Source of the DNA: Gemmatimonadota bacterium
GTDB lineage: Bacteria; Gemmatimonadota; Gemmatimonadetes; Gemmatimonadales; GWC2-71-9
NCBI GenBank assembly: GCA_039588935.1
Contig: JBDGYW010000001.1
Coordinates: 13,659-77,658 of the forward strand
Direction of reading: 5' to 3'
DNA length: 64,000 bases
The notes beneath the pieces were generated by a model. That model was not told where the DNA came from. It saw only the letters and a list, made by a program, of their open reading frames with translations, and did no database searches. Both the position numbers and the translations under genes were made by a program. Below, piece by piece: positions 1,053 to 32,128 of the stretch. Positions within the stretch are counted from its first letter, which is position 1; every line of letters starts with the position of its first letter.

Positions 1053-1126
1053 TTCGACTTAGCTCAGCCTGGTAGAGCTCCGAACTAACACTTCGGTGGT
1101 CGAGAGTTCAATTCTCTCAGTCAAAA
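1053..1126 (+). tRNA. tRNA, anticodon AAC (Val by the code)
   Basis: Hand-folded cloverleaf. Acceptor TTCGACT/AGTCAAA pairs at 6 of 7 positions (C3:A70 mismatch). D-arm GCTC-AGCCTGGTA-GAGC. Anticodon arm CCGAA-CTAACAC-TTCGG with U33 and A37. T-arm GAGAG-TTCAATT-CTCTC. 74 nt, CCA not encoded. Confidence 0.75.
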
Positions 1127-1155
1127 CCGCCCCCACCACTCGGCCGCGGTTTTTC
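1125..1155 (+). terminator. Weak terminator-like hairpin after the tRNA
   Basis: AACCGC (1125-1130) pairs with GCGGTT (1146-1151), followed by TTTT. Short stem that overlaps the tRNA 3' end. Confidence 0.3.
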
Positions 1156-2126: not shown

Positions 2127-2146
2127 TTATCCACAGGTTATCCACA
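2127..2146 (+). promoter_or_regulatory. Two tandem perfect DnaA boxes TTATCCACA
   Basis: 2127-2135 and 2138-2146, 11 bp start to start. Flanked by GGAATTTTT repeats at 2110 and 2164, in the divergent MTase/XRE spacer. Confidence 0.6.
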
Positions 2147-3657: not shown

Positions 3658-3825
3658 ATGATCTGGCACGATGGACCACGGTGTCCGCACTGCGGGCGAA
3701 GGTTTTGGACGGAGGCCGCGCTGTGGAAGCATTACGAGCGCGGATGTCGGAAGACACCAAAACAGAAGTGGGAGAAGCCGAAGGGCCCGCTGTCGCTCTA
3801 CCCTAACAATCGGCGATGTAGTTAG
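3658..3825 (+). CDS. Small zinc-finger protein (55 aa)
   Basis: Below the ORF-track size cutoff. TAGGAGGACGA cassette followed by ATG 3658. My translation is MIWHDGPRCPHCGRRFWTEAALWKHYERGCRK.... It fills the 3644-3834 gap. Confidence 0.55.
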   Translation: MIWHDGPRCPHCGRRFWTEAALWKHYERGCRKTPKQKWEKPKGPLSLYPNNRRCS

Positions 3826-3834
3826 GAGGACGAC

Positions 3835-4074
3835 ATGCGGGAACGAATAGGACGATCGGGATTGCGGCGCGCTGAGCTGGAGCAAGAGTGCGCGATGATT
3901 GGAAGCGCCCTTGGCGACGTACTCAAGGCAAGAACACCTGGCGCTGGGTTCGCGCTTCTTCTTTTCGACTTTGGCGAAAAAGGGAACATTGCCTACGTCT
4001 CGAATGCGAACCGCGAGGACATGATAGAGGCGCTGGGTGAGTTGTTGGGGAATCTGAAGGCGGAGACACGGTAG
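3835..4074 (+). CDS. Hypothetical protein (79 aa)
   Basis: ORF track. TTAGGAGGACGAC-ATG cassette. ORFan. Confidence 0.65.
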   Translation: MRERIGRSGLRRAELEQECAMIGSALGDVLKARTPGAGFALLLFDFGEKGNIAYVSNANREDMIEALGELLGNLKAETR

Positions 4075-4084
4075 GAGGAGGAGG

Positions 4085-4546
4085 ATGGAGGAAAAACCGA
4101 CCGATGCCGCGATCCTGAAAGAGCTTGCGATAAGGATTCGACAACGACTCGACGAGGTTGATGCGGCCGATCGTCGTGCCGAACGGGCGGAGGCCCAGCT
4201 CGAAGGATTCCATGACGCCCTCGCTGCTATTGCCCAGCACGGGCCACAGCCGAGATGCCAGTGTGGATGCAATGAGGTTGGCAACGAATGTGATGCGGAT
4301 TGTGCGGCCCAGATGGTCGGTTTTGCCATGACGGCACTCAGTAAAACTGACTGGAAGGGCGCCGCTGAGCGTCGTGACGAGTGGGAGCGCGGTATCATGG
4401 AACAGCTAAAGAAGCTGTTCGCAGAGGCCGGTGTGAAGATTCTCGTTGGCCCGCGAGCCCCACTTCAAAACCAGATGGAAGGCCGGCTTCAGAGCGAGGA
4501 CGTGAAGCTCTACTTCCGCCTTGAGTTTTCCAGGCGCGGATTCTAG
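4085..4546 (+). CDS. Hypothetical protein (153 aa)
   Basis: ORF track. TAGGAGGAGGAGG-ATG. Cys cluster CQCGCNEVGNECDADC. Confidence 0.7.
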   Translation: MEEKPTDAAILKELAIRIRQRLDEVDAADRRAERAEAQLEGFHDALAAIAQHGPQPRCQCGCNEVGNECDADCAAQMVGFAMTALSKTDWKGAAERRDEWERGIMEQLKKLFAEAGVKILVGPRAPLQNQMEGRLQSEDVKLYFRLEFSRRGF

Positions 4547-4559
4547 GAAGAAGGACGAG

Positions 4560-4889
4560 ATGAAAGAAAGACACACCTCACCGGAGCTGCTTCAGAGGCT
4601 AAACGCCGCGACAAGGGCTGCTGCAGACAAATTGGGCGACGACTGCGGTGCGGTCATCGTTGTCGGAGTAATGCGCGATCCGGACGGTGTCGCATTCCCA
4701 ATCAAGGATCTTTGGAACTCCGCCTTTACCGACGAGAACATCCGTGACATCTACCCGTTGGTTGGCGAGGTATTCAAGCGGTGGATTGCTGGGCAAGCGA
4801 AGGGTGAGCGTGGCGACGAATGCCCCGACTGCATCAATGCCATCAACAGCGGCGAATTGCTATGCAAGCGCCACCTGGATGAGTACTGA
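4560..4889 (+). CDS. Hypothetical protein (109 aa)
   Basis: ORF track 4521..4889 trimmed to ATG 4560 behind GAAGGACGAG. C-terminal CPDC...CKRH. Confidence 0.65.
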   Translation: MKERHTSPELLQRLNAATRAAADKLGDDCGAVIVVGVMRDPDGVAFPIKDLWNSAFTDENIRDIYPLVGEVFKRWIAGQAKGERGDECPDCINAINSGELLCKRHLDEY

Positions 4890-4890
4890 G

Positions 4891-4910
4891 AACAAACAGC
4901 TCTTTATCAT
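4891..4910 (+). promoter_or_regulatory. Early intercistronic motif copy AACAAACAGCTCTTTATCAT
   Basis: Starts right after stop TGA 4887-4889 and ends 1 nt before ATG 4912. Confidence 0.6.
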
Positions 4911-4911
4911 C

Positions 4912-5337
4912 ATGGCTACCAAGTACCCAACCCCATCACGGCAGCGACCAGACGTTTTCAACGTGTGCGTGAAATGCCTCTTCTCGATTCCGAGTACAGA
5001 ACCGATCGGCTTCGAGTTTCTATTTGGTGAGCACTGGGTTACCTGCCACGCCAGCGACAAGGACTGCTTAGACCGTCAGGATAAGTGCAGGGATCGCCAC
5101 AGGCGCGAGATAGCTCATCGCATGAAGTTTCTAGCCGGAGGTCACTTGGTGGTGATACGCGATCTGCTAGGCCACCACTTCGACACCTATGGGAACTACT
5201 ACCTGAAAGTCGAGGAGGGCGCGGACCCGCTTCAGCGAGCCGAACAGTTCATTCGCGCTCAGGATGAGACGTGGGGTTCTCTCGCGGGGAAGTGCGTTCT
5301 CATCGTCGAAGAGATCCTCTCGGACGGCGCTAGCTAA
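4912..5337 (+). CDS. Hypothetical protein (141 aa)
   Basis: ORF track 4687..5337 trimmed to ATG 4912, which directly follows the early motif. No SD. Confidence 0.6.
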   Translation: MATKYPTPSRQRPDVFNVCVKCLFSIPSTEPIGFEFLFGEHWVTCHASDKDCLDRQDKCRDRHRREIAHRMKFLAGGHLVVIRDLLGHHFDTYGNYYLKVEEGADPLQRAEQFIRAQDETWGSLAGKCVLIVEEILSDGAS

Positions 5338-5355
5338 ACCACAGTTTGTTATCAA
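5335..5355 (+). promoter_or_regulatory. Early intercistronic motif copy TAAACCACAGTTTGTTATCAA
   Basis: Begins with stop TAA 5335-5337. Followed by the GGAGGACGA RBS. Confidence 0.65.
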
Positions 5356-5368
5356 CGGAGGACGACAA

Positions 5369-5608
5369 ATGTCACAGCCAATGGATGAGCAAGAGGTGAG
5401 GCGCCGTCGTCAGCACGCCACCGCGGGCGCTCATATAGCTCAAGCTGTTGAGCATCTTGCGCGTGCCCAGGAAGCAGTGGCGGATCTTTGGGCCGGGGGC
5501 CATGCGATTAGCAGCTACTACCTCGACCAGCTCAGCCGCGCGGCGAACGCGCACCTACAGATTGCGGCTCACGGAGACGAGTTAGGAGGACGAGATGGCC
5601 AAGATTGA
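5369..5608 (+). CDS. Hypothetical protein (79 aa)
   Basis: ORF track 5264..5608 trimmed to ATG 5369 behind GGAGGACGA (5357-5365). Confidence 0.65.
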   Translation: MSQPMDEQEVRRRRQHATAGAHIAQAVEHLARAQEAVADLWAGGHAISSYYLDQLSRAANAHLQIAAHGDELGGRDGQD

Positions 5609-5873
5609 CCCCATACCATTCGCGCAGCACCTCGTCGGATACGCCTGCGGCGTGATGCGCGCAATCACCGAGGCGCTCGAGAGTGCCCAGACCAACGAGG
5701 CATACAGCTGCGAGCAGTTCGAGAAGGCTCGCGATTTCATCGATGAGTTTCTCGTGCAGCACAAGACGGAGAACTCCTCAGGGGAGCCCGTGGGGTACGG
5801 TCCGCTTCGATGTGGCGAGTGCCTCGCATGTCGAAAGAATGAACCGTGCTTTGATCCGCCGACGGCTCTTTGA
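5595..5873 (+). CDS. Hypothetical protein (92 aa)
   Basis: ORF track. GGAGGACGA at 5585-5593. Overlaps the previous gene end. Confidence 0.7.
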   Translation: MAKIDPIPFAQHLVGYACGVMRAITEALESAQTNEAYSCEQFEKARDFIDEFLVQHKTENSSGEPVGYGPLRCGECLACRKNEPCFDPPTAL

Positions 5874-5874
5874 G

Positions 5875-5896
5875 AACAAACAACGCTTTATTATCA
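5875..5896 (+). promoter_or_regulatory. Early intercistronic motif copy AACAAACAACGCTTTATTATCA
   Basis: Follows stop TGA 5871-5873 and precedes GGAGGACGA 5898-5906. Confidence 0.65.
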
Positions 5897-5907
5897 CGGA
5901 GGACGAT

Positions 5908-6336
5908 GTGACGGACGTAGAGCGAGAATGGGCGAAAACGATCATCGACGGAGATAGGCTGGCGCTGTGGGCGCTAGATAGCTGCGATGAGTTCGACACC
6001 GACATGTTCGGCGACGAACTTGAATGGCTCAGGTTTCGCTTTGGGGAAACGTGGTACGTCTGGAATCCAGATGACGACTGGGACGGCGAGGGTGTCGCTG
6101 TGGCTATGCTGATGGTGAAGGCGGTCGAGAACTCTCGCGCCGCCGCCGAAGCCGAAATCGAACACCATGTCAGGAAGCGGGTTGAGTTAACGCAGGCGGT
6201 GCGTCCGGCGGTTGAGTGGATGGAATGGTGGCTAGATCAGCAGGAGTGCGAGTGCGAGGGCATCGGCCATAATTGCGGGCGGGATGGCCGCCAGCGCGAA
6301 TACCGGGTGGCACGCGCCGCGCTAGACGGACGCTGA
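5908..6336 (+). CDS. Hypothetical protein (142 aa)
   Basis: ORF track 5683..6336 trimmed to the in-frame GTG 5908 behind GGAGGACGA. Acidic, Trp-rich ORFan. Confidence 0.65.
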   Translation: MTDVEREWAKTIIDGDRLALWALDSCDEFDTDMFGDELEWLRFRFGETWYVWNPDDDWDGEGVAVAMLMVKAVENSRAAAEAEIEHHVRKRVELTQAVRPAVEWMEWWLDQQECECEGIGHNCGRDGRQREYRVARAALDGR

Positions 6337-6349
6337 GTAGGAGGACGAG

Positions 6350-6751
6350 GTGGCTGAATCGAGTGACGAGGTTGCTGAGTGTGCAGGCTGTGGTGGTGAA
6401 GTCCCCTTCATTGACGCAATCGCCGAGAACAACCAGCAGTGGTGTAGTTACATCTGCATCGCGCGCGACGTTTCCACGAAGGCGATCGAACGCGCAGCAG
6501 AGAAGCCAACCCGACTTCGCAAGGGTTGGAGGAGCACCGCGATCGCCTACATTGAGGTCGTCGCGGACGCGGAGACGATCGGTGCGTTCCGCGACTGGAT
6601 GCGAGCGGAGAAGATAACGTTCTACCACAGCTGCTCGCCTTACAACCCCCTGGCCCACAGTGGCTACTTCCGTGAAGCGGAAGCGAAGCGCATCGAGGCG
6701 TGGCTGGGTGCCCACGTCGAGCAGACGTGGCCGCAAGCCGGCCGCGTCTGA
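6350..6751 (+). CDS. Hypothetical protein (133 aa)
   Basis: ORF track. GTG behind GGAGGACGA 6340-6348. N-terminal CAGCGG...C zinc-ribbon-like. Confidence 0.7.
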   Translation: MAESSDEVAECAGCGGEVPFIDAIAENNQQWCSYICIARDVSTKAIERAAEKPTRLRKGWRSTAIAYIEVVADAETIGAFRDWMRAEKITFYHSCSPYNPLAHSGYFREAEAKRIEAWLGAHVEQTWPQAGRV

Positions 6752-6752
6752 G

Positions 6753-6775
6753 AATAAACGACGGGTTTGTTATCA
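6753..6775 (+). promoter_or_regulatory. Early intercistronic motif copy AATAAACGACGGGTTTGTTATCA
   Basis: Follows stop TGA 6749-6751. Together with the stop it forms the imperfect dyad TGAGAATAAAC / GTTTGTTATCA. Confidence 0.65.
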
Positions 6776-6819
6776 GAGGAGGACGGGATGAGTGAGGTCG
6801 ATGAACAGCGAGAGGGGGA

Positions 6820-7086
6820 TTGACGGTGCAGCAAAGAACCAGGTGCCGCGAAATCCTATCGACGCACGCCGGTGCTGTCGAGTGTCGCCGCAACCGCGAC
6901 ACCGGGACCGTAATTACCCTCTATCGAGCCAGTGAGGCGGGCTTGGACGATGATCCATGGACGCCGTGGGCGACCGTTTGTGAGGATCATGGATCTATCG
7001 TGCTTCACCGGACACGAGCGGATGGCCGTTCCGCGATCGCACACCCGGATTGGTGTCGCGAGTGTGCCGAGCTGTACGGGCGGTGA
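6820..7086 (+). CDS. Hypothetical protein (88 aa)
   Basis: ORF track. TTG start behind GAGAGGGGGA (GTG 6826 is an alternative). Start uncertain. Confidence 0.5.
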   Translation: MTVQQRTRCREILSTHAGAVECRRNRDTGTVITLYRASEAGLDDDPWTPWATVCEDHGSIVLHRTRADGRSAIAHPDWCRECAELYGR

Positions 7087-7087
7087 G

Positions 7088-7110
7088 AATAAACGACGGT
7101 TTGTTATCAA
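7088..7110 (+). promoter_or_regulatory. Early intercistronic motif copy AATAAACGACGGTTTGTTATCAA
   Basis: Follows stop TGA 7084-7086. Confidence 0.65.
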
Positions 7111-7128
7111 CGAAAGGAAGGGAAAGAC

Positions 7129-7368
7129 ATGATCTTTAGAGTCGAAAACAAGTGGAGCGGTGCGAGGCTCGTCGAGGCGCATGCCCTGGACGAAGCGATC
7201 TCGAAGGCACGCGACGCAGAGATCGGCGAGTTCAAAACCTCCTACGCGGAGAACGCGATCCCAGGCAAGAACCTCGAGCCGAAGGATCTAGAAGAGGCAC
7301 TGGTAGACTTTCGGCCCGATCTCGAACCATTTCGGGCAGAACTTGTCGCGCAGGAGGTGCTCCGCTAG
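7129..7368 (+). CDS. Hypothetical protein (79 aa)
   Basis: ORF track. GGAAGGGAAAG RBS-like. Codons 3-7 carry a 13-bp dyad copy. Confidence 0.65.
   Translation: MIFRVENKWSGARLVEAHALDEAISKARDAEIGEFKTSYAENAIPGKNLEPKDLEEALVDFRPDLEPFRAELVAQEVLR
7135..7147. repeat. 13-bp dyad copy TTTAGAGTCGAAA
   Basis: Within codons 3-7 of CDS 7129..7368. Confidence 0.55.
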
Positions 7369-7391
7369 CTAAACGACGGGCGTGTTATCAG
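7369..7391 (+). promoter_or_regulatory. Early intercistronic motif copy CTAAACGACGGGCGTGTTATCAG
   Basis: Follows stop TAG 7366-7368. Confidence 0.6.
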
Positions 7392-7401
7392 TGAGGGAGA
7401 C

Positions 7402-7659
7402 ATGCCAGAGACTAAATCCGACGCCACCCAGCCGCTAAAGGCGTGGGCAGTACAGCACGACTCGCACGGGATCTGCGTTGACACGCTCTGTTTTCTGCAG
7501 GAGGGCGACAAACCTGAAGGCGACCTCGCGTGGGTGCGCCTCCCCTGGTTGGATGAGCCGGAGGGCGACGAGAGTCGGTGTTTCGAATGCCGGAGCACCA
7601 ACCTAGAGTTTGAGGAACGGGTCACATGTCGCACATGCGGCAAGGTCAGCCCGTACTAG
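7402..7659 (+). CDS. Hypothetical protein (85 aa), C-terminal zinc ribbon
   Basis: ORF track. GAGGGAGA RBS. CFECRS...CRTCG. Confidence 0.65.
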   Translation: MPETKSDATQPLKAWAVQHDSHGICVDTLCFLQEGDKPEGDLAWVRLPWLDEPEGDESRCFECRSTNLEFEERVTCRTCGKVSPY

Positions 7660-7668
7660 GAGGATGAC

Positions 7669-7962
7669 ATGTACGGGAAAACGGTGAGGAAAAGGGTCCG
7701 CGCGGTACTGGAGGAGACAACTCGCGCGGAGGCTCACGTTGAGGTGGACGTGCCGGTCTATGTCTGCCAAGCCTGCGAAGAGCAGGCGGAGGCGGAGGTT
7801 ACCTCGATGCGACGCCAGGCCGCAGACGAACAGCTCTACGTGAGCGGATGGAAAAAACCGGAGGGGTGGATTGACACGGTGGTGTCGGACGATAAGTCAC
7901 TTTGCCTCTGTGGGGGCTGTCTCTCGATTGCGCTTGCAGCCGTGAGCCTGGAGCTGGAATAG
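7669..7962 (+). CDS. Hypothetical protein (97 aa)
   Basis: ORF track. TAGGAGGATGAC-ATG. CQAC...CLCGGC. Confidence 0.65.
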   Translation: MYGKTVRKRVRAVLEETTRAEAHVEVDVPVYVCQACEEQAEAEVTSMRRQAADEQLYVSGWKKPEGWIDTVVSDDKSLCLCGGCLSIALAAVSLELE

Positions 7963-7971
7963 GAGAACTGG

Positions 7972-8478
7972 ATGAGCACCAAAGAACACCCATACCGGAA
8001 GATCGCCAGACAGGGGGTGAAGTACCGAGATGGTGAGGGGTGGATCGACTCGGGAAGTGGGAGGCTTCTCTGCCCGGGCAACTCTCGGCTTGTGACTCTC
8101 AATCTGAAACTTGGCGGTGTTGTCAACCACTGCGTGCCTATGCGAGATCTGCTCCACATCTTCCAGATATACGCCCTGCCTCCGCCCGGGTGGGAACCAC
8201 CACCGGCTCCCCCAGTCGACGCCTGCGAGGGTGAGATTGCGATTCAATCCGACGCGACAAACACGATCGTCTTTAGCCGATCCGTTCGCGGGCTTGTCGA
8301 CGATTATTGGTCGCGTCTCACGCGCGATGAAGTCCCAATCACGCTTCTACGCCCGCTTAGCTTTTGGCCAAGTGACTCGATCCGCCTCATCGGCCTCGGA
8401 GCACGCGACGGCACTGAGGTGGAACTGCACGGTTGCTTTGACCCCATCCCACCGCGCACAGGCGTGGGCTGGAGCTAA
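7972..8478 (+). CDS. Hypothetical protein (168 aa)
   Basis: ORF track. TAGGAGAACTGG-ATG. ORFan. Confidence 0.7.
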   Translation: MSTKEHPYRKIARQGVKYRDGEGWIDSGSGRLLCPGNSRLVTLNLKLGGVVNHCVPMRDLLHIFQIYALPPPGWEPPPAPPVDACEGEIAIQSDATNTIVFSRSVRGLVDDYWSRLTRDEVPITLLRPLSFWPSDSIRLIGLGARDGTEVELHGCFDPIPPRTGVGWS

Positions 8479-8500
8479 CTAAATACGAGTTTGTTATCAA
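8479..8500 (+). promoter_or_regulatory. Early intercistronic motif copy CTAAATACGAGTTTGTTATCAA
   Basis: Follows stop TAA 8476-8478. Part of the 225-bp duplicated segment. Confidence 0.65.
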
Positions 8501-8506
8501 CGGGGG

Positions 8507-8519
8507 TTGAGACTCTAAA
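8507..8519. promoter_or_regulatory. 13-bp dyad copy TTGAGACTCTAAA
   Basis: Intergenic. Fused to the AAAGGAGG RBS of 8530. Confidence 0.65.
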
Positions 8520-8529
8520 GGAGGTTGGC

Positions 8530-8742
8530 GTGAACGGAGCAATGGAACTGTTTTTCCGCGAGCTGGTAGACGAGTATGGCTCGGAGGGGGTGGCTCGCGT
8601 CCTACTCGAGCGTCTCTACAAAAATTGCCAGGAACAGTGGCCACTCAATACGACGTGGGCCGCCAGTGACGAGGGGATAATGACTCATGTTCGTGGGTGG
8701 CTACGCGAAGCAGCGCAGCGACGAACAGGGGCGGCCGGATGA
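8530..8742 (+). CDS. Hypothetical protein (70 aa), short paralog of the N-terminus of 11284..11880
   Basis: ORF track 8491..8742 trimmed to GTG 8530 behind GGAGG. NGAMELFFRELV...QEQWPLN..WAASDEGIMTHVRGWL is shared with 11284. Confidence 0.7.
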   Translation: MNGAMELFFRELVDEYGSEGVARVLLERLYKNCQEQWPLNTTWAASDEGIMTHVRGWLREAAQRRTGAAG

Positions 8743-8918
8743 CGGCACGCAAGACATTCCGCGGCGAGAAGCGGGCGACGAAGGCCGAACTTAAGAAGGA
8801 AGCACGGGAGATCGCGAAGTTCGTCGAGATGTTGTTGCAATTCTCGCACGAAGGCCGCTTCCGTATTCTCCGCGCGCTGTCGGCCTACTTTCGCAACTAC
8901 AACGGAGACGTGAAATAG
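8739..8918 (+). CDS. Hypothetical basic protein (59 aa)
   Basis: ORF track 8697..8918 trimmed to ATG 8739 (ATGA overlap with the previous stop). Confidence 0.55.
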   Translation: MTARKTFRGEKRATKAELKKEAREIAKFVEMLLQFSHEGRFRILRALSAYFRNYNGDVK

Positions 8919-8927
8919 GAGGACGAC

Positions 8928-9527
8928 GTGAGTTACGAACACTGCGAGAAACACGACGAGGATGCGACCAACGGCTGCATGGCGTGTGAGAAGGAGCGGG
9001 TTGCAGCGCTGACGGACGCTGATGTCATCAGCGAACTCTCCGCCATGGCCAGTGGCAACTATCGCCGGACGCCAGAGGAACCGATGTTTGTCCGCGCCAA
9101 CGAAATTCGGAAGCGCTTGAGCAAGGGGCTTGAGGAAAGCGTGGGTGAGTCGTGCGTCGAGTCGCTACGAAGAATGGCGAAGCAGGCGCGCGACAACCTC
9201 ACCGACAGGGAGCGCGAGATCCTCGACAAGCACTTTACACCTCCGCGTCGAGCGGACTCCACGGCCGCATTGCGCACGGAATTAGGGGAGGGGAAGTACA
9301 CCAGGTGGATGGCGCGGCTTTCGGACGGCGAACTCGTCGGCTTGCTATGGTTGGTCGGGGAGTACGCGGCGAGATCCGACTCCCAGGAGCACGACATCGC
9401 AAAGTTTGATCACCCAGGGGACCGCCGGAAGTATGGCGCGTTGAATGGCATCGCTGCCTTCAAGCGCAAGCCGATGAGCCTCGATCTGGTTCGTCTCTTC
9501 ATGCGCAACTGCGTGAATGGAGAGTAG
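8928..9527 (+). CDS. Hypothetical protein (199 aa)
   Basis: ORF track. GTG behind GGAGGACGA 8918-8926. Confidence 0.7.
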   Translation: MSYEHCEKHDEDATNGCMACEKERVAALTDADVISELSAMASGNYRRTPEEPMFVRANEIRKRLSKGLEESVGESCVESLRRMAKQARDNLTDREREILDKHFTPPRRADSTAALRTELGEGKYTRWMARLSDGELVGLLWLVGEYAARSDSQEHDIAKFDHPGDRRKYGALNGIAAFKRKPMSLDLVRLFMRNCVNGE

Positions 9528-9536
9528 AAGGACGTC

Positions 9537-9647
9537 ATGGAAAATGTCTATATCGCGATAGTCGTCGGCACGACCACGCTCCTGGGCGCGCTCATCGGCG
9601 TTCTCGGCGGGCACTTAGCCTCGCGGCGTCGGGACCGTGGAGACTGA
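9537..9647 (+). CDS. Small single-pass membrane peptide (36 aa)
   Basis: Below the ORF-track cutoff. ATG 9537 lies 10 nt after the previous stop. MENVYIAIVVGTTTLLGALIGVLGGHLASRRRDRGD gives a TM helix plus a basic tail. Confidence 0.4.
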   Translation: MENVYIAIVVGTTTLLGALIGVLGGHLASRRRDRGD

Positions 9648-9651
9648 GAGC

Positions 9652-9671
9652 AAAACATGAAGTTATCTTCA
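9652..9671 (+). promoter_or_regulatory. Degenerate early motif copy AAAACATGAAGTTATCTTCA
   Basis: AAAAC-N5-GTTATC upstream of the GGAGG RBS of 9683. Weaker match than the others. Confidence 0.35.
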
Positions 9672-9682
9672 CGGAGGTCACG

Positions 9683-9913
9683 ATGAAGATCCGCATAGTC
9701 AAGCCATCGCAGCGACTGCTCGACTACATCGGGTCGCTTGTGTCGCTCGAGGAACGGCGAACAATCACCGACGATGAACTGCTCAGGCGAGACCGCGCGT
9801 CCGACGACCTGTGGAACGACCTCTCGGACGAGGAACAGGAAGAGGTTCGATCTGGAACGGTGTCCGAAGCGGAAGCCGAGGGTCTCCTGGCCGCACTGAA
9901 GCGTCGACCTTGA
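9683..9913 (+). CDS. Hypothetical acidic protein (76 aa)
   Basis: ORF track. ACGGAGGTCACG-ATG. Confidence 0.65.
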   Translation: MKIRIVKPSQRLLDYIGSLVSLEERRTITDDELLRRDRASDDLWNDLSDEEQEEVRSGTVSEAEAEGLLAALKRRP

Positions 9914-9914
9914 G

Positions 9915-9937
9915 ACTAAACACCAATTTATTATCAG
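9915..9937 (+). promoter_or_regulatory. Early intercistronic motif copy ACTAAACACCAATTTATTATCAG
   Basis: Follows stop TGA 9911-9913. Confidence 0.6.
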
Positions 9938-9946
9938 GAGGCCGAG

Positions 9947-10411
9947 GTGAAGGAGATCATGAAAAAATCAACGCCACTGACGGTCTACGACTGGGTGGCC
10001 TGTGTCGCTCGAATCGTGCCTGAGGCAACCTTTTCAGCCGGGACTCGCATCAGGGACAATAAGCACCGCGTTGTCGTCGAAACTCCATGGATGAACCTGG
10101 AGTGCGTAGTAGAGGAGGATAAGGCGGAGGCTGTTCGCGATCACTTATACACGAAGCGCCCATGTATCGCATGTGAAGGAAAGGGATATGTGGGAACCGC
10201 ACGGGCTCGATGTGCGCACTGCAATGGGGCAGATCTTGAGAGTCGCAATCGCGAGAGCGAGTGCGGCGATGAGCCGGAGTTCGCGATTTGCAGTCAATGC
10301 GGGCTCGCCATCGTGCTTGCAGCCAAGGAGAGCGGGCGACTGGTCAAACACGAGGACCCGTGTTCGCGAAAGCCCTGCCTGGGCATGGCCTCAACGGGTT
10401 CGCCGAAGTAG
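9947..10411 (+). CDS. Cys-rich protein (154 aa) with DnaJ-type CxxCxGxG-like fingers
   Basis: ORF track. GTG 9947 (ATG 9959 is an alternative). CIACEGKGYV, CAHCNG, CSQCG. Confidence 0.65.
   Translation: MKEIMKKSTPLTVYDWVACVARIVPEATFSAGTRIRDNKHRVVVETPWMNLECVVEEDKAEAVRDHLYTKRPCIACEGKGYVGTARARCAHCNGADLESRNRESECGDEPEFAICSQCGLAIVLAAKESGRLVKHEDPCSRKPCLGMASTGSPK
10236..10248. repeat. 13-bp dyad copy TTGAGAGTCGCAA
   Basis: Inside CDS 9947..10411, read as cTT GAG AGT CGC AAt (LESRN). Confidence 0.7.
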
Positions 10412-10423
10412 GAGGACGACGGC

Positions 10424-10609
10424 ATGGACTGTTTGCTAACTTTGGACGAGTTTGTGGAGGAATTCGTCAGGGAAATGACTCGTGACGCAGATGCTTTCAA
10501 GTTGCACACAGAGGGACAGACGATGGCGCCAGGACGGATGTGCGTCGACGAATGGCATCGCCTGTATGTCGCCTTCCTGGACCAGCGTGGCGACGGTGTG
10601 CGCAACTAG
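10424..10609 (+). CDS. Hypothetical protein (61 aa)
   Basis: ORF track. GGAGGACGA at 10411-10419. Confidence 0.6.
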   Translation: MDCLLTLDEFVEEFVREMTRDADAFKLHTEGQTMAPGRMCVDEWHRLYVAFLDQRGDGVRN

Positions 10610-10618
10610 GAGGACAAC

Positions 10619-11236
10619 ATGGCACAACTAGACCAGGCATGGCCGGAGCCGAAGGAACGCCCAATTTTGTTCAGCGGACCGATGGTGCTGGCGATCCTTG
10701 CGGGCAAGAAGACGCAAACGCGGCGGGTGATTAAACCGTCGTGGTCACGATGTCTCGACTTGGACGATCCGGACGACCGCGAGAAAGCGCGGCTGGGTTG
10801 TCCACACGGCACATCTCGGGATCGGTTGTGGGTCCGTGAGACATTCTACTGCGACGACTACCGCTACCCGAACGCTCCACCAGGAGAACTCTTACAGCTG
10901 ATGGAGTATCGAGCTGACCATGATTGTCGGACGTGGGAGGCGGGTTGTCCATGCTGCGATGAGGAGGGGCGCGCGTCTTGGAGGCCGTCTATTCATATGC
11001 CCCGATGGGCCTCGCGGATCACACTTGAAGTGATCGCTGTGAGGGTTGAGCGAGTGCAGTCGATCAGCGAGCAAGGCGTGCTCGCCGAGGGCATCGAGCC
11101 CGCGATCGTTGCCGGTGCGGCCTGGCACTGGCGACCGTTCCAGCACCTCTGGGACTCGATAAACGCCAAGCGCGGATACCCGTGGGCGGAAAACCCGTGG
11201 GTCTGGGTCGTCGAATTCAAGGTCCAGCGAAACTAA
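10619..11236 (+). CDS. ASCH/PUA-like domain protein (205 aa)
   Basis: ORF track. TAGGAGGACAAC-ATG. The N-terminus PILFSGPMVLAILAGKKTQTRRV is typical of ASCH-type phage proteins. Confidence 0.65.
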   Translation: MAQLDQAWPEPKERPILFSGPMVLAILAGKKTQTRRVIKPSWSRCLDLDDPDDREKARLGCPHGTSRDRLWVRETFYCDDYRYPNAPPGELLQLMEYRADHDCRTWEAGCPCCDEEGRASWRPSIHMPRWASRITLEVIAVRVERVQSISEQGVLAEGIEPAIVAGAAWHWRPFQHLWDSINAKRGYPWAENPWVWVVEFKVQRN

Positions 11237-11254
11237 ACCACGGTTTGTTATCAG
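11233..11254 (+). promoter_or_regulatory. Early intercistronic motif copy CTAAACCACGGTTTGTTATCAG
   Basis: Overlaps stop TAA 11234-11236. Part of the 225-bp duplicated segment. Confidence 0.65.
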
Positions 11255-11260
11255 TTGGGA

Positions 11261-11273
11261 TTGAGACTCTAAA
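11261..11273. promoter_or_regulatory. 13-bp dyad copy TTGAGACTCTAAA
   Basis: Intergenic. Fused to the GGAGGACGA RBS (11274-11282) of 11284. Confidence 0.65.
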
Positions 11274-11283
11274 GGAGGACGAG

Positions 11284-11880
11284 ATGAATGGAGCAATGGA
11301 ACTATTTTTTCGCGAGCTAGTAGGCGAGTACGGCCCGGAGAGGGTAGCCCGTGTTTTACTCGAGCGCCTTTACAGGAATTGCCAGGAACAGTGGCCGCTC
11401 AATGCAACCTGGGCCGCCAGCGACGAGGGAATAATGACCCACGTTCGTGGCTGGCTATCCGAGGGCGACAGACCTGAGCGAGTGGGATGCCCCGGAGCCA
11501 CCCACGGGCAGAACAGAGGTGCGGACTGCGACGCGGGCAGCGGACCCGCACCTCAGCCGCCCGTCATCTTGTTCCATCCTGCAGGCAAGAAGCTGGTCAT
11601 CGACCACTCGACGCACCCAATCACGCTCCTCGGTGAGGATGCGTTGGGTGGCGAAGTCCAGCCAATCGTCAACATGCGGCCAATCAACAAGTATGGCCGC
11701 GTCGTCGAATCGCACATTGTTCTCATTCCGAACGCATCGTCGCTGCAGCTCTCATGGCACCCGGCTTACGTGTGGCCGGGAAACACGGTGTACATACCAA
11801 GTGACGGCATGGACATGGTGACCGTGGTGATGGATCGAGACGGGCGCATGCTTTCGACTGTCACGCGCGACTTTCAATAG
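11284..11880 (+). CDS. Hypothetical protein (198 aa), long paralog of 8530..8742
   Basis: ORF track 11182..11880 trimmed to ATG 11284 behind GGAGGACGA. The first ~58 aa are shared with 8530, followed by a unique C-terminal ~140 aa. Confidence 0.75.
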   Translation: MNGAMELFFRELVGEYGPERVARVLLERLYRNCQEQWPLNATWAASDEGIMTHVRGWLSEGDRPERVGCPGATHGQNRGADCDAGSGPAPQPPVILFHPAGKKLVIDHSTHPITLLGEDALGGEVQPIVNMRPINKYGRVVESHIVLIPNASSLQLSWHPAYVWPGNTVYIPSDGMDMVTVVMDRDGRMLSTVTRDFQ

Positions 11881-29551: not shown

Positions 29552-29932
29552 TCAGCCCAGGGGCTCGAGGATGACGATCGCGCGGTAGCGCTGCTGGACG
29601 CGCACCCTTGCCCCGTTGTGGTTGCCGTGCTGGAGTGCCGGGTCCAAGCAGACGCGGTAGTTGATCGCCTGGAAGTTCAGGTAGGCGTCCACCTCGGTGT
29701 CCTTCTGGTCGAAGTGCTGCTGCGGCAGCTCGAACGTCGTCGCGAAGACGTGCTCGGCGCGCTCCAGGAGCGGTCCTGCGCCGCCCTGGAGCGCCTGGAT
29801 GCCTTCCTTGGCGTCTCTCAGGAGCGAGAGAGCGTCCTGGAGGGCGTTCTGGAGGCGCGTATCGGCCTCGGCCGCGGCGTTCTCCACGGCCTGGACGGCG
29901 ATCGCGGGGTCGAAGTTCTTCAGCTCGCACAT
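29552..29932 (-). CDS. Hypothetical protein (126 aa)
   Basis: ORF track. AAAGGAGAACCCG-ATG. First gene downstream of the 168-bp spacer 29933-30100. Confidence 0.7.
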   Translation of the reverse strand: MCELKNFDPAIAVQAVENAAAEADTRLQNALQDALSLLRDAKEGIQALQGGAGPLLERAEHVFATTFELPQQHFDQKDTEVDAYLNFQAINYRVCLDPALQHGNHNGARVRVQQRYRAIVILEPLG

Positions 29933-30085
29933 CGGGTTCTCCTTTAGATGGGTGCGCTCGCGCGCGGTGATGGGCTTCTCTCCCGGGGTTTTCGGCCGGT
30001 TTTATGCCGGCGCACGCCAATTTTGGCTCGAAACCCCCATTGAAACACGACGTAAGTACTTGAAATCATTAGGTTATGCGTGGGG

Positions 30086-30114
30086 TTTGATAACAAACTA
30101 CTATTTATTATCAA
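30086..30114. promoter_or_regulatory. Palindromic double copy of the early motif TTTGATAACAAAC-TACTA-TTTATTATCAA
   Basis: 11-bp arms match at 10 of 11 positions. It reads as an early motif on both strands, overlaps the stop codon of 30101..30427, and heads the only sizeable spacer inside the leftward array. Confidence 0.7.
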
Positions 30115-30427
30115 CGTGGTGAGCGCGCGATCGCGCCGAAATCGGCTCCAGAAGCACAGCCAGGGCGCGCAGCGGCGCGTCGCGCTCCACCCAGTCGGCC
30201 GCGGCGTCCAGGCGCGCCGGCTCCTCGTACCCGTGGTTCCACATGGTCCGGATGACGGTCTCCTGCCAGCAGTCAGGCTCCGCGGCGCCGGCCTCCCAGC
30301 GGCACACCTGTCCCTGGCTGGAGTGGACCATGAGGGCGAAGAAGCGCTGCGTGGCGCCGATCCGGCCGCGGAGCAGCCGCGTGATGCGCTGGATCGTCAT
30401 CCCGCCGCGGATGCGGGTCTCGGCCAC
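30101..30427 (-). CDS. XRE-family HTH regulator (108 aa)
   Basis: ORF track. MTIQRITRLLRGRIGATQRFFALMVHSSQGQVCRWEAG. Paralog of 30841..31149 (both end ...ALAVLL.P). Confidence 0.7.
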   Translation of the reverse strand: MAETRIRGGMTIQRITRLLRGRIGATQRFFALMVHSSQGQVCRWEAGAAEPDCWQETVIRTMWNHGYEEPARLDAAADWVERDAPLRALAVLLEPISARSRAHHVDNK

Positions 30428-30430
30428 GGC

Positions 30431-30844
30431 TCAGCCCCTCCTCCGATAGAGCTTCGAGCGGCCGTCCTGGGCGTCGAGAACCTCGACGAGGCCGTGATGA
30501 GCCATCGCGGCCAGACGCCGGCTTGCCGTCGAGATATGCGTTCCGGTCGCCGCGGCGACCTCGGTCGGACATTGAGGTCCCCTCGCGAGGCAGTCGAAGA
30601 CGTCCTCCCATCCGATTGGCCACCGTGCCGCGATCGCGTGCCACCCAGCCGAGAACGCGGCGACGACGTCCAGGAGCGCGTCGCGATAGCCCTCCGCGTA
30701 CTCGCTCACCGGATCTAGAGCCACCGCGCCAGCCCGGAACGCCGCCAGCTCCTCCTGGTTACGCTTCACCATGGCATGTCCGACGTCGCGGCCCGACCGC
30801 CTTTCTCCTTCGCGAACGCGCGGGAGTGTCCTATCGAGTTTCAT
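30431..30844 (-). CDS. Winged-helix (MarR/ArsR-like) regulator (137 aa)
   Basis: ORF track 30431..31018 trimmed to ATG 30844. CPTEVAAATGTHISTASRRLAAMAHHGLVEVLDAQDGRSKLY is a typical wHTH recognition helix plus wing. Confidence 0.65.
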   Translation of the reverse strand: MKLDRTLPRVREGERRSGRDVGHAMVKRNQEELAAFRAGAVALDPVSEYAEGYRDALLDVVAAFSAGWHAIAARWPIGWEDVFDCLARGPQCPTEVAAATGTHISTASRRLAAMAHHGLVEVLDAQDGRSKLYRRRG

Positions 30845-31149
30845 CGCGGCCCCCAATTCGAGGGCGCGAGCAGCACGGCCAGGGCCGCGTGGGGCTGCCC
30901 GGAGCGGACGAGCTCCTTGGCGACCTGCATGCGGTCTGGGTAGGTGACCAGGTTGCGGCTCGCAAGTCTGAGGGCGGCCGTCTGCCACTCGTCGGGGCGG
31001 CCGACGCCACGCTCCCACTTGCTGATCGTGACCCAGTGGGCATTCAGCATGCGGCCGAGCTGGCCCTGGGTGGCCTCGAGCGCGGTTCGAAGCCTCCTGA
31101 GGCGACGCCTGTTCATCGAATCGAGGTCTGTGTTCATGGATCGGGCCAT
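30841..31149 (-). CDS. XRE-family HTH regulator (102 aa)
   Basis: ORF track 30841..31293 trimmed to ATG 31149 behind AGGAGGGGGGA. LEATQGQLGRMLNAHWVTISKWERG. Confidence 0.75.
   Translation of the reverse strand: MARSMNTDLDSMNRRRLRRLRTALEATQGQLGRMLNAHWVTISKWERGVGRPDEWQTAALRLASRNLVTYPDRMQVAKELVRSGQPHAALAVLLAPSNWGPR
30953..30965. repeat. 13-bp dyad copy TTGCGGCTCGCAA
   Basis: Inside CDS 30841..31149 (coding strand CTT GCG AGC CGC AAC). Confidence 0.55.
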
Positions 31150-31153
31150 TTGT

Positions 31154-31372
31154 TCACCGATTCCCCCTCCTGTGCAGCCGCTTGGCGCGGATGACGAGAA
31201 CGTCGACCAGGTGCTGGCGTCCTGCCTGCTGAATGTCGTCGAGCTGGCGCCCGTCGAGCAGGTAGTAAAGTAGCGGGCCGTGAAGCGTCTCATACGTTTT
31301 GTCCGAGATGAGATCGGCAGCGCTGACCGTGAGGGTGCCCTCGCTGTCAGCGTCGGCGAAGACCTTGGTCAT
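31154..31372 (-). CDS. Hypothetical protein (72 aa)
   Basis: ORF track 31154..31531 trimmed to ATG 31372 (ATGA overlap with the upstream stop). Confidence 0.55.
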   Translation of the reverse strand: MTKVFADADSEGTLTVSAADLISDKTYETLHGPLLYYLLDGRQLDDIQQAGRQHLVDVLVIRAKRLHRRGNR

Positions 31373-31617
31373 ACGCCCTCCTTTCGCGCAGCATCCCAGC
31401 CAGCGTCGTAGCCGCGGTCGTACGCCTCCTGCACGGGCGACTTGAGACCCTCGACGCTGTCCATGTAGCAGCCGACGCAGGCCGTCCTGGTCATCGGCTG
31501 CTTGATGCGTCGCCACATCGCGTGGCCGCACTCAAGAACGTGAAGGATTAGCGTTCCTCCGCGCGGGCCGCTGAAGGTGCGCGCCTCAACGACGTCTCGC
31601 ATGGGGGTCTCGCTCAC
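31369..31617 (-). CDS. Hypothetical protein (82 aa)
   Basis: ORF track 31369..31998 trimmed to GTG 31617 (GTGA overlap; ATG 31602 is an alternative). CGH...CVGC. Confidence 0.5.
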   Translation of the reverse strand: MSETPMRDVVEARTFSGPRGGTLILHVLECGHAMWRRIKQPMTRTACVGCYMDSVEGLKSPVQEAYDRGYDAGWDAARKEGV

Positions 31618-31823
31618 AGCTCCGATCCGTGCTTTTGGGCGTAGTCGTCTGCCGCCTTGCAGCACACCGGACAGAGCCAGTTCCCGCACGGCTGTCGCTC
31701 CCAGCCAATGAACTGCGCCTCGACCAGTGTGATGCCGCCCTCCTCGTTGCCGGCGACGATCGCCTGCGACCGCTTGCACTCGGCGCAGACCACGTACTCT
31801 CCTGCCTTGTCGTCCATCGTCAT
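31614..31823 (-). CDS. Zinc-ribbon protein (69 aa)
   Basis: ORF track 31614..32030 trimmed to ATG 31823 (ATGA overlap). CAEC...CPVCC. Confidence 0.6.
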   Translation of the reverse strand: MTMDDKAGEYVVCAECKRSQAIVAGNEEGGITLVEAQFIGWERQPCGNWLCPVCCKAADDYAQKHGSEL

Positions 31824-32128
31824 CTCCACAGCGCCTGGCAGTCGGGGTGGTGGAAGGTTCGCTTGCCCTCTTCCCATGCGACTTTGAGATCGCGAGCGAC
31901 CATGCCGTAGACCGCGAGCCAAAGACTGCCTTCGCCGGCATCGAGTTCTCTGCACTTGCAGTTGAACCGCGGCGCCATGAGGCTGGCCATCTTCGCAATC
32001 GTGGCGAGAAGATTCGCTCGGTTCGGACACAACTTCTTTCGACCGAACGGCTCGATAATCACGTAGCTCCCGTCGTCGTAGGCGATGATGCCATCGCAGA
32101 TTGTCGTCTCCGTGTGTTCGTCACCCAT
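31820..32128 (-). CDS. Hypothetical protein (102 aa)
   Basis: ORF track. Confidence 0.65.
   Translation of the reverse strand: MGDEHTETTICDGIIAYDDGSYVIIEPFGRKKLCPNRANLLATIAKMASLMAPRFNCKCRELDAGEGSLWLAVYGMVARDLKVAWEEGKRTFHHPDCQALWR

Follow-up and report, generated by a model that had tools for sequence, protein, structure and literature searches.

Junction site and gene neighbourhood

The window analysed here is a 64,000-nt stretch (bases 13659-77658) of C1, an 80,611-bp contig (GenBank JBDGYW010000001.1) that is the longest in an 8.8-Mb metagenome bin assigned to a Gemmatimonadota bacterium. The element in question is an AT-rich inverted repeat at 30087-30114, the junction dyad, which lies in a leftward gene array between three stacked genes for small helix-turn-helix (HTH) proteins (X2, WH and X1) and an operon headed by a gene for a 126-aa protein. 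The dyad core was invariant between the window and two related phages, L009 and L010, while protein identity between the three phages was only 47-65%. The dyad at this operon boundary is therefore a genuine cis element under selection.

At position 80497 of C1 its opening sequence of at least 100 bases is repeated, and therefore C1 is a closed circle of ~80.5 kb. The circle is an entire phage-like genome rather than a prophage integrated elsewhere, and distances from the integrase are measurable both ways round the circle. Almost no match was obtained for the larger C1 proteins in Pfam or PHROGs.

The two arms of the dyad (30087-30097 and 30104-30114) are 11 nt each, are complementary at 10 of 11 positions and flank a 6-nt spacer, which confirms the near-perfect inverted repeat of the original prediction. 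On the minus strand, the left arm supplies the final four codons (VDNK) of the X1 open reading frame (ORF), and the first TAG of the spacer is its stop codon. The half-site centres of the inner dyad are 11 bp apart, which is compatible with an HTH dimer. The features of the locus are listed in Table 1.

Table 1. Features of the junction locus and of the early block (window coordinates)
Feature	Position	Strand	Remarks
28-bp AT-rich dyad	30087..30114	-	Inverted repeat; reads TTGATAATAAA-TAGTAG-TTTGTTATCAA on the minus strand; conserved junction site
Inner 16-bp dyad, ATAAA-TAGTAG-TTTGT	30093..30108	-	Exactly between -35-like TTGATA and -10-like TATCAA
Second conserved block, TAATGATTTC	30062..30071	-	Starts 26 nt past TTTGT in both the window and L009 (alignment)
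Non-coding leader, ~150 nt, from the dyad to the 126-aa gene	29933..30086	-	Ends in the common CTAAAGGAG ribosome-binding region
126-aa protein	29552..29932	-	First gene of the dyad-headed conserved operon; 49-54% identical in L009/L010
X1	30101..30427	-	Diverged X-family paralog; XRE HTH plus C-terminal helical domain; last codons form the left arm of the dyad
WH	30431..30844	-	ArsR/IclR-type winged helix (residues ~80-135) plus unique 80-aa N-terminus
X2	30841..31149	-	Conserved X-family ortholog (GRMLNAHWVTISKWERG); start codon uncertain: 31149, 31137 or 31116
72-aa ORF	31154..31372	-	Homolog not detected in L009 or L010
82-aa Cys/His-rich protein	31369..31617	-	Best-conserved small gene nearby; 78% identical to L009 17364-17648
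Accessory early block, ~24 ORFan genes	3658..11880	+	Holds all other motif copies: 5345, 5887, 6766, 7100, 8490, 9927, 11244

The leader folded no better than shuffled sequences (z -1.2 and +1.3), and Rfam gave no match in the spacer or the leader. No intrinsic terminator and no U-tract were found on the sense strand of the spacer between X1 and the 126-aa gene. The site was not called in a scan for the sigma-70 consensus, because it has no T at the final -10 position. This 168-nt spacer had been described as the one real gap in the leftward array. By gene call it is the largest gap within 25-35 kb, but other ORF-free gaps of 139-330 nt occur in the array.

Conservation of the junction site in related phages

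Related phages were found via homologs of the neighbouring glycosyltransferase (GT), which led to syntenic contigs. The GT is 65% identical to that of the window in L010 and 47% in L009. The L009 contig was extended to 40.7 kb of a 78.6-kb record (as L026 and L027), a sample that takes in the integrase and the early XRE gene, the early array in full, the adhesins and the leftward array. Gene order is conserved between the window and its relatives from the virion module to the convergence point.

A homologous dyad was located upstream of the 126-aa operon at 18313-18340 in L009 and at 11067-11094 in L010 (window, gTTGATAATAAATAGTAGTTTGTTATCAA; L009, gGTGACAACAAATAGTAGTTTGTATACAC; L010, cTTGAAGATAAATAGTAGTTTTATGCATC). 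In the three-way alignment, 16 of the 19 columns of the core TGAnAnnAAATAGTAGTTT were invariant, the inner core reading ACAAATAGTAGTTTGT in L009 and ATAAATAGTAGTTTTA in L010, and the surrounding spacer was mostly unalignable. From base composition alone, we estimated the chance of a common AT-rich 12-mer at one syntenic spot in 62% GC DNA at roughly 1e-6.

The ORF that runs into the site differs between the phages. In L009 it is an unrelated Cys-rich ORF of 125 aa that ends ...GDNK-TAG-TAG. The L010 site is intergenic, and the open frame preceding it (...HTLAVLIAP...EDK*) carries a weak relic of an X-type C-terminus (E ~0.15-0.5). The left arm is thus kept across different upstream ORFs, and therefore selection acts on the DNA and not on the protein. 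Furthermore, the outermost pair of the dyad changes from T..A in the window to G..C in L009, a symmetric change that keeps the dyad. Arm symmetry falls from 10/11 in the window to 8/11 in L009 and 3/11 in L010. In each of the three phages, a -35-like hexamer keeps the same distance from the core (TTGATA in the window, GTGACA in L009 and TTGAAG in L010). The leader, counted from gene to gene, measures 168 nt in the window and 148 nt in L009, with a similar ribosome-binding site (RBS) region at its end. The second block, TAATGATTTC, is absent from L010. A 183-aa gene of the HNH/AP2-like homing-endonuclease type (11119-11670) lies between the L010 dyad and the 126-aa homolog, ~30 nt past the site.

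Wider searches were also performed. Scans of IMG/VR for close relatives with WH and GT queries returned nothing, and scans with a family profile of the 126-aa protein returned nothing in IMG/VR or metagenome contigs. The full dyad in IMG/VR and its 20-nt core in metagenome and genome collections gave only low-GC chance matches with no protein similarity. In a word-indexed homolog search, X2 found itself only, and WH found one homolog, in an unrelated phage contig. The more distant GT-bearing contigs L024, L025 and L048 are not syntenic at the locus and carry no X gene, 126-aa gene or motif. L011 ends short of the locus and is not part of the comparison. The sibling contig L007 is 99.3% identical to the window and has zero single-nucleotide polymorphisms between 29031 and 33686, and therefore microdiversity gives no selection signal here.

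Copies of the site in the accessory early block

The early motif TTGATAACAAA occurred 12 times at ≤2 mismatches against 3.27 expected, a count that none of 100 shuffles reached. As an 11-mer it has four exact and four one-mismatch copies in C1, two of which are the arms of the junction dyad, and the rest lie between 5.3 and 11.3 kb in the window. In all seven plus-strand copies (5345-11254), TTTRTTATCA reads in the sense direction and is closely followed by an RBS, and the gene starts 9-31 nt past the motif.

The junction had been singled out as the only palindromic copy. This does not hold, since every early copy is preceded by nTAAA-N6 and so forms an imperfect dyad with the core nTAAA-N6-TTTGT. 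A second pair, at 5870/5887, is also spaced by 17 nt. Of all the copies, the one at the junction has the highest symmetry.

The genes of the accessory block have no homolog in the L009 sample, and both flanks of the block are syntenic. Likewise, a second intact copy of the motif, in the L009 version or in that of the window, is missing from the L009 sample. A single conserved junction copy and a block lacking L009 homologs point to the junction site as the conserved and probably ancestral copy, and to the early motif as its lineage-specific multiplication. The early motif, which had been treated as the primary element, is therefore better seen as copies of the junction site.

The cassettes at 8490-8530 and 11244-11284 are near-duplicates in which the motif is followed by gagactCTAAAGGAGG and by genes that both start MNGAMELFFRELV. 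These two cassettes have CTAAAGGAG in common with the junction leader, and this sequence is found nowhere else in the window (positions 29939, 8515 and 11269 only). It looks as if the site was copied together with the end of its leader. With syntenic flanks and no L009 homologs, 3658-11880 is an accessory, hyperplastic early block. A degenerate fragment (GAGAACAAACAACGCT...) also adjoins the L009 integrase (L027 2434-2460) and has 16 exact nt in common with the non-syntenic window segment 5872-5887.

Regulator genes beside the site

All three stacked genes encode DNA-binding proteins of the HTH type, as had been predicted, and this was supported by Pfam, a family profile and an AlphaFold2 (AF2) model searched with Foldseek. 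The predicted paralogy of X1 and X2 was likewise confirmed (34% identity over 71 aa, E=5e-11), and ALAVLL.P occurs in both. X2 and WH overlap by ATGA, and WH and X1 are 3 nt apart.

The Pfam scores of X2 were below the cut-offs (HTH_31, 22.7 against 27; HTH_3, 16.7 against 23), as was the match of X1 to HTH_3 (E=0.086). A profile of the X family was built from X1, X2 and two phage orthologs, and it recovered proteins of 88-130 aa. HTH_3 was matched at E<0.01 by 15 of the 16 aligned family members (best, 1.9e-9). The best solved relative of the profile was the DNA-binding domain of the P22 c2 repressor (E=1.2e-7), and Aca3 was also matched. The AF2 model of X1 (pLDDT 86) is all-helical, with helices at 12-23, 27-33 and 38-45. 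Its Foldseek matches were all XRE HTH proteins, although the scores were weak (top matches HigA2, MbcA, NatR, P22 c2 and C-proteins; probability 0.9-1.0, E 0.1-1, TM 0.4-0.5). These results indicate that X is an XRE-type HTH protein whose predicted fold in the HTH region resembles solved repressors. The C-terminal half, which ends in an ALGVLL/ALAVLL helix, matched no Pfam family. The recognition helix of X1 reads SSQGQVCRWE, against AHWVTVSKWE in the family.

The relatives carry a single X-family gene, which is of the X2 type (L009 17645-17926, 52%; the C-terminal half of L010 10120-10758, 51%). At the locus, WH and the 72-aa ORF are absent from L009 and L010, and so is an intact X1. The single X2-type gene of the relatives shows that X2 is the conserved member of the pair, and X1 is a diverged duplicate. 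In L010, the X-family domain is fused to a homolog of the window gene 31820-32128 in a 212-aa ORF (10120-10758), and this protein is the cluster representative P0126 in a large library.

WH passed the Pfam gathering thresholds of HTH_IclR (36.2 against 22) and HTH_20 (27.5 against 27) over residues 81-122, and it matched the ArsR-family PDB chain 2kko (E=4.6e-4). It scored below the thresholds of named families (MarR, 14-18 bits; ArsR in NCBIfam, 22 against 55), its N-terminal 80 aa matched no family, and the full-length architecture of IclR, MarR or ArsR proteins was not found in it. Thus WH, which had been described as MarR/ArsR-like, should be classed from its sequence as a winged HTH protein only. 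The sole homolog found, P0003 (68% identical), keeps the N-terminal 80 residues, and therefore the start that gives a 137-aa WH and the ATGA overlap with X2 is supported. L006, the contig that carries this homolog, belongs to a different phage and has nothing else in common with the phage of the window. WH is taken as an acquired, lineage-specific gene because its sole homolog is in the otherwise unrelated L006 and it is absent from L009 and L010.

The 72-aa ORF had been reported as coupled by ATGA to the regulators. It does overlap by ATGA with its own upstream gene (31369-31372), but it is separated from X2 by 4 nt with no ATGA there. The 82-aa Cys/His-rich protein encoded by that upstream gene directly precedes the X gene in L009 with an identity far above that of its neighbours, and it is a candidate zinc-binding regulator. 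The 126-aa protein on the other side of the dyad matched no family, and its AF2 model was poor (pLDDT 60). Searches of the downstream operon against Pfam, PHROGs, NCBIfam and PADLOC yielded only phrog_2293, a family without assigned function.

An Xre-type antitoxin of the HigA, MqsA or MbcA/NatR kind was also considered for X. It was rejected, since no cognate toxin adjoins the genes (RES, HigB and MqsR were unmatched among the neighbours in Pfam, NCBIfam and PADLOC) and the structural likeness is confined to the HTH and weak overall. NCBIfam and PADLOC showed no defence partner beside X1, WH or X2.

Chromosomal homologs of the X family (93-108 aa) were observed in L029, L030 and L031, from genomes G249, G176 and G300 of the host's order. 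They have a hydrophobic C-terminus that ends in ADK or ADKK and are followed by a conserved gene starting MPY...G(V/I)DH.GI.D.GN. The homolog and the MPY gene look like a two-gene cassette. In two cases, an ACTAAGC-N4-GCTTAGT dyad lies upstream of the X homolog.

Other signals in the genome

Several other identities were considered for the site and rejected. It is not an IHF site, as no IHF TTR element follows TATCAA, and it is not a DnaA site, as TATCAA does not fit TTATCCACA. A replication origin at the site was rejected because the turning points of the GC-skew at ~25 kb and ~57 kb follow gene direction. A promoter for a phage RNA polymerase was rejected because the 80.5-kb circle holds no ORF of the required size. 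The promoter upstream of the early XRE gene (2250) has TTGACC, which is TTGACA in L027, and therefore host RNA polymerase reads a standard -35 element in these phages.

Two perfect DnaA boxes (TTATCCACA), 2 nt apart, were found at window 2127-2146, between the integrase start and the early-XRE promoter. One box is kept at the equivalent place in the L009 phage (L027 4753-4761). They may point to an origin or to control of early transcription by DnaA. The integrase is adjoined by a tRNA-Val gene (window 1053-1128) with the anticodon AAC, which is unusual for a bacterial tRNA-Val.

Proposed function of the site

In the explanation we favour, to which we assign a probability of about 0.45, the dyad is a conserved transcription-control cassette that heads the 126-aa operon, an X-family dimer is the likeliest reader of the inner dyad, and the cassette was later copied. 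The observations beneath this explanation are the conservation, position and partners of the site, the HTH identity of the proteins, and the lineage-specific origin of the early copies. From these we infer promoter activity, the identity of the binding protein and the sign of regulation.

The layout of a -35-like TTGATA, the 16-bp inner dyad (A(T/C)AAA-N6-TTTGT when the relatives are included) and a -10-like TATCAA would form a promoter with an operator in its spacer. The operon under its control would run leftward from the 126-aa gene, from 29932 to ~25443. A dimer of the X family would read the inner dyad, and X2 is predicted to protect ATAAATAGTAGTTTGT. Bound X would set how much transcription starts at the site or passes through it. 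Cro/cI-type dimers typically bind half-sites with centres 11 bp apart, and the 434 operator is ACAA-N6-TTGT.

An X-family gene is found 0.1-0.4 kb upstream of the site in all three phages, and the recognition helices are near-identical (AHWVTISKWE, AHTVTVSKWE and VHWVTVSKWE). X2-type dimers are favoured because X is the only DNA-binding gene that stays beside the site, and its helix, like the core, has barely changed. Three additions would then have followed in the lineage of the window. The X gene would have been duplicated, with X1 as the diverged copy; a foreign winged-helix gene would have been inserted between the X copies; and copies of the site at cassette junctions in the 8.2-kb early block would have brought those genes under the same control.

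Several observations weigh against this explanation. The final T is missing from the -10-like hexamer, whose offset from the -35 drifts through 16, 15 and 14 nt between the phages. In four of the seven early copies, a Shine-Dalgarno sequence (SD) lies 0-2 nt after TATCAA or TATCAG. A transcription start ~7 nt downstream would remove this SD, and therefore those copies must sit inside longer transcripts, as stoperators do (PMC9283540); the four must act as operators or attenuators rather than as productive promoters. The invariance of the central TAGTAG would be unusual in an operator spacer that is not contacted, and the L010 arms are barely symmetric. Only three related phages underlie the linkage of X to the site. 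Equally conserved proteins are alternative readers: the 126-aa protein, the 82-aa Cys/His protein and the early XRE protein (2250-2489). The chromosomal X homologs have a different upstream dyad and are therefore uninformative on specificity here. The promoter and binding roles proposed for the site are read from sequence comparison.

A more extended scenario is that the small XRE regulator of a new virus family widened its regulon. A single ancestral site at the 3' end of its own gene, which persisted where the upstream gene was exchanged, would have been copied, as a mobile promoter-operator-RBS cassette, onto each unit of a new 8-kb block of ORFans, and the regulator would have been duplicated and a winged-helix partner acquired simultaneously. 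We regard this full course of events as doubtful, at rather long odds.

Alternative explanations

The strongest alternative, itself unlikely, is a roadblock operator of the stoperator kind with no promoter activity. A bound repressor would halt polymerase arriving from upstream, silence the accessory cassettes of the early block, and shield the 126-aa operon against the X1/WH/X2 transcript. Such a role fits the position of the copies in short intergenic junctions, where they overlap upstream stop codons and in the four cases above almost touch the SD. In every copy the well-conserved half reads in the sense direction, and repressors of Cluster A mycobacteriophages terminate elongation at many such sites (PMC9283540). 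However, there are only ~8 copies, in one block and the junction, and the single intact copy in the sampled 40.7 kb of L009 is more in keeping with an ordinary operator or promoter. Moreover, the sequence is a dyad and not strictly asymmetric, and no immunity repressor was recognised.

An activator-dependent promoter is improbable. Here X or another factor would turn on the 126-aa operon from a dyad centred near -42, and the -10 element would be AATGAT within TAATGATTTC. The distance of exactly 26 nt between TTTGT and TAATGATTTC in the window and L009 would place the centre of the dyad ~42 nt upstream of a start served by AATGAT, and no -35-like hexamer stands at the right distance from AATGAT. 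Phage late-gene regulators are known to adjoin their target promoters, as lambda Q does with pR' and as do Mor and C of Mu. Against this promoter stand the loss of TAATGATTTC in L010, the weakness of AATGAT as a -10, and the early copies, where a gene start 9-31 nt past the motif makes the geometry impossible.

Action at the RNA level is less probable again. An A/U-rich hairpin with an AGUA loop would serve as a signal for processing, stability or antitermination. The predicted hairpin is stable in the window (-9.5 kcal/mol, z -4.4) and in L009 (-10.2 kcal/mol, z -2.9), and its inner stem and loop, AAAU-AGUA-GUUU, are invariant in the three phages. The outer pair changes from U-A to G-C, and some copies allow G-U pairs on the sense strand only. 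However, any palindrome automatically gives a hairpin. The copy at 5345 has only 3-5 inner pairs and the segment 5862-5902 folds with z -0.7, yet TTTGTTATCA is unchanged in them. Copies that are unable to fold keep TTTGTTATCA, and therefore recognition of sequence is favoured over structure. A U-tract and an Rfam match are lacking, and an RNA-binding partner was not identified.

The original prediction itself took the X2-WH-X1 stack and the palindrome as a second bistable genetic switch that reads the early motif, a 13-bp dyad, or both. Three HTH genes do adjoin the dyad. WH, X1 and the multi-copy motif also co-occur as features specific to the lineage of the window, in a comparison that comprises two genomes. 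The 13-bp dyad TTGCGASTCGCAA has 17 copies in the window at ≤1 mismatch against 0.13 expected, and the copy noted inside X2 is indeed present at 30953-30965. This copy has no counterpart in the X gene of L009. Elsewhere, the 13-bp dyad occurs in nine copies in the L009 record, four in L010 and four in the distant L024 (variant centre TTGCGACGCGCAA). It is therefore enriched in phages without WH, and it is absent from L006, which carries the WH homolog and has neither this dyad nor the early motif. This distribution speaks against WH as reader of the 13-bp dyad and makes such a role unlikely.

Nor is it the whole stack that is conserved, given that the relatives have one X gene and neither WH nor an intact X1. 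Thus only one of the three regulators belongs to the conserved core. The genes are co-directional and translationally coupled, the single dyad lies downstream of them, and no divergent promoter pair was found. No antagonist pair, tandem operators or opposite-strand gene of a lambda-type switch were present at the locus. The bistable switch is hence a poor prospect, and the best reading of the site is a control node and not a demonstrated switch.

The least credible alternative is a recombination or homing boundary with no regulatory role, either a junction of cassette exchange or the target of a homing endonuclease: copies do bound ORFan cassettes in the plastic block, where the 8490 and 11244 cassettes are duplicated, the HNH/AP2-like gene of L010 is inserted close to the site and PeSLs, the phage elements compared below, mediate modular shuffling (PMC2839356), but a single copy is kept at a fixed position beside the regulator in phages without the accessory block or an endonuclease, and recombination and regulatory uses are compatible.

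Comparison with known systems and significance

The closest published counterparts of the favoured promoter-operator cassette are the promoter-early stem-loops (PeSLs) of the T4-type phages RB49 and phi1. PeSLs comprise a stop codon, an AT-rich stretch, a -35 element, a stem-loop, a -10 element, an SD and a start codon, and they precede ORFan genes within plastic parts of the genome (Arbiol et al. 2010, PMC2839356). By sequence, this layout is found in eight copies here, the copies are likewise concentrated before ORFans in a plastic early region, and cassettes are duplicated. However, the sequences are unrelated, the host here is high-GC, and ~8 copies compare with ~50 PeSLs. The hexamers here are only consensus-like, and the stem is A/T-rich whereas that of PeSLs is G/C-rich. 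A further difference is that one copy here is conserved across related phages beside a regulator and is seemingly the source of the rest.

The stoperators of Cluster A phages (L5, TipsytheTRex; PMC9283540) resemble the site in being a repeated short intergenic sequence in one orientation that overlaps stop and start signals, with an HTH repressor as the expected reader. They differ in being asymmetric 13-14-bp sites that are bound by a monomer and spread genome-wide. The site here is a dyad with few and local copies, and no immunity repressor is assigned.

The operators of Cro/cI-type repressors of lambdoid phages (434, P22 c2) and of the Aca-type autorepressors that control anti-defence operons share with the site an XRE-type candidate reader and the one-turn spacing of half-sites in the inner dyad. 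In contrast to those systems, tandem operators and a divergent repressor pair are absent here, the site is placed at the 3' end instead of in front of the regulator gene, and X has an extra C-terminal helical domain without a Pfam family.

The junction site thus appears to be a true regulatory node that is conserved within a new phage group, and its parts would be of familiar kinds: an XRE regulator, a dyad operator and a cassette resembling PeSLs. The idea of a three-regulator switch is corrected to a conserved core with one regulator. In this group of ~80-kb phages, which has almost no recognisable genes, a regulatory element tied to a partner protein opens the expression programme to study. 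Furthermore, the course of evolution read from the comparison, in which one conserved site was multiplied within an accessory block, bears on the origin of PeSL-like mobile cassettes. If true, the dissemination of the operator would be a directly traceable case of accessory genes being wired into an existing phage timing circuit.

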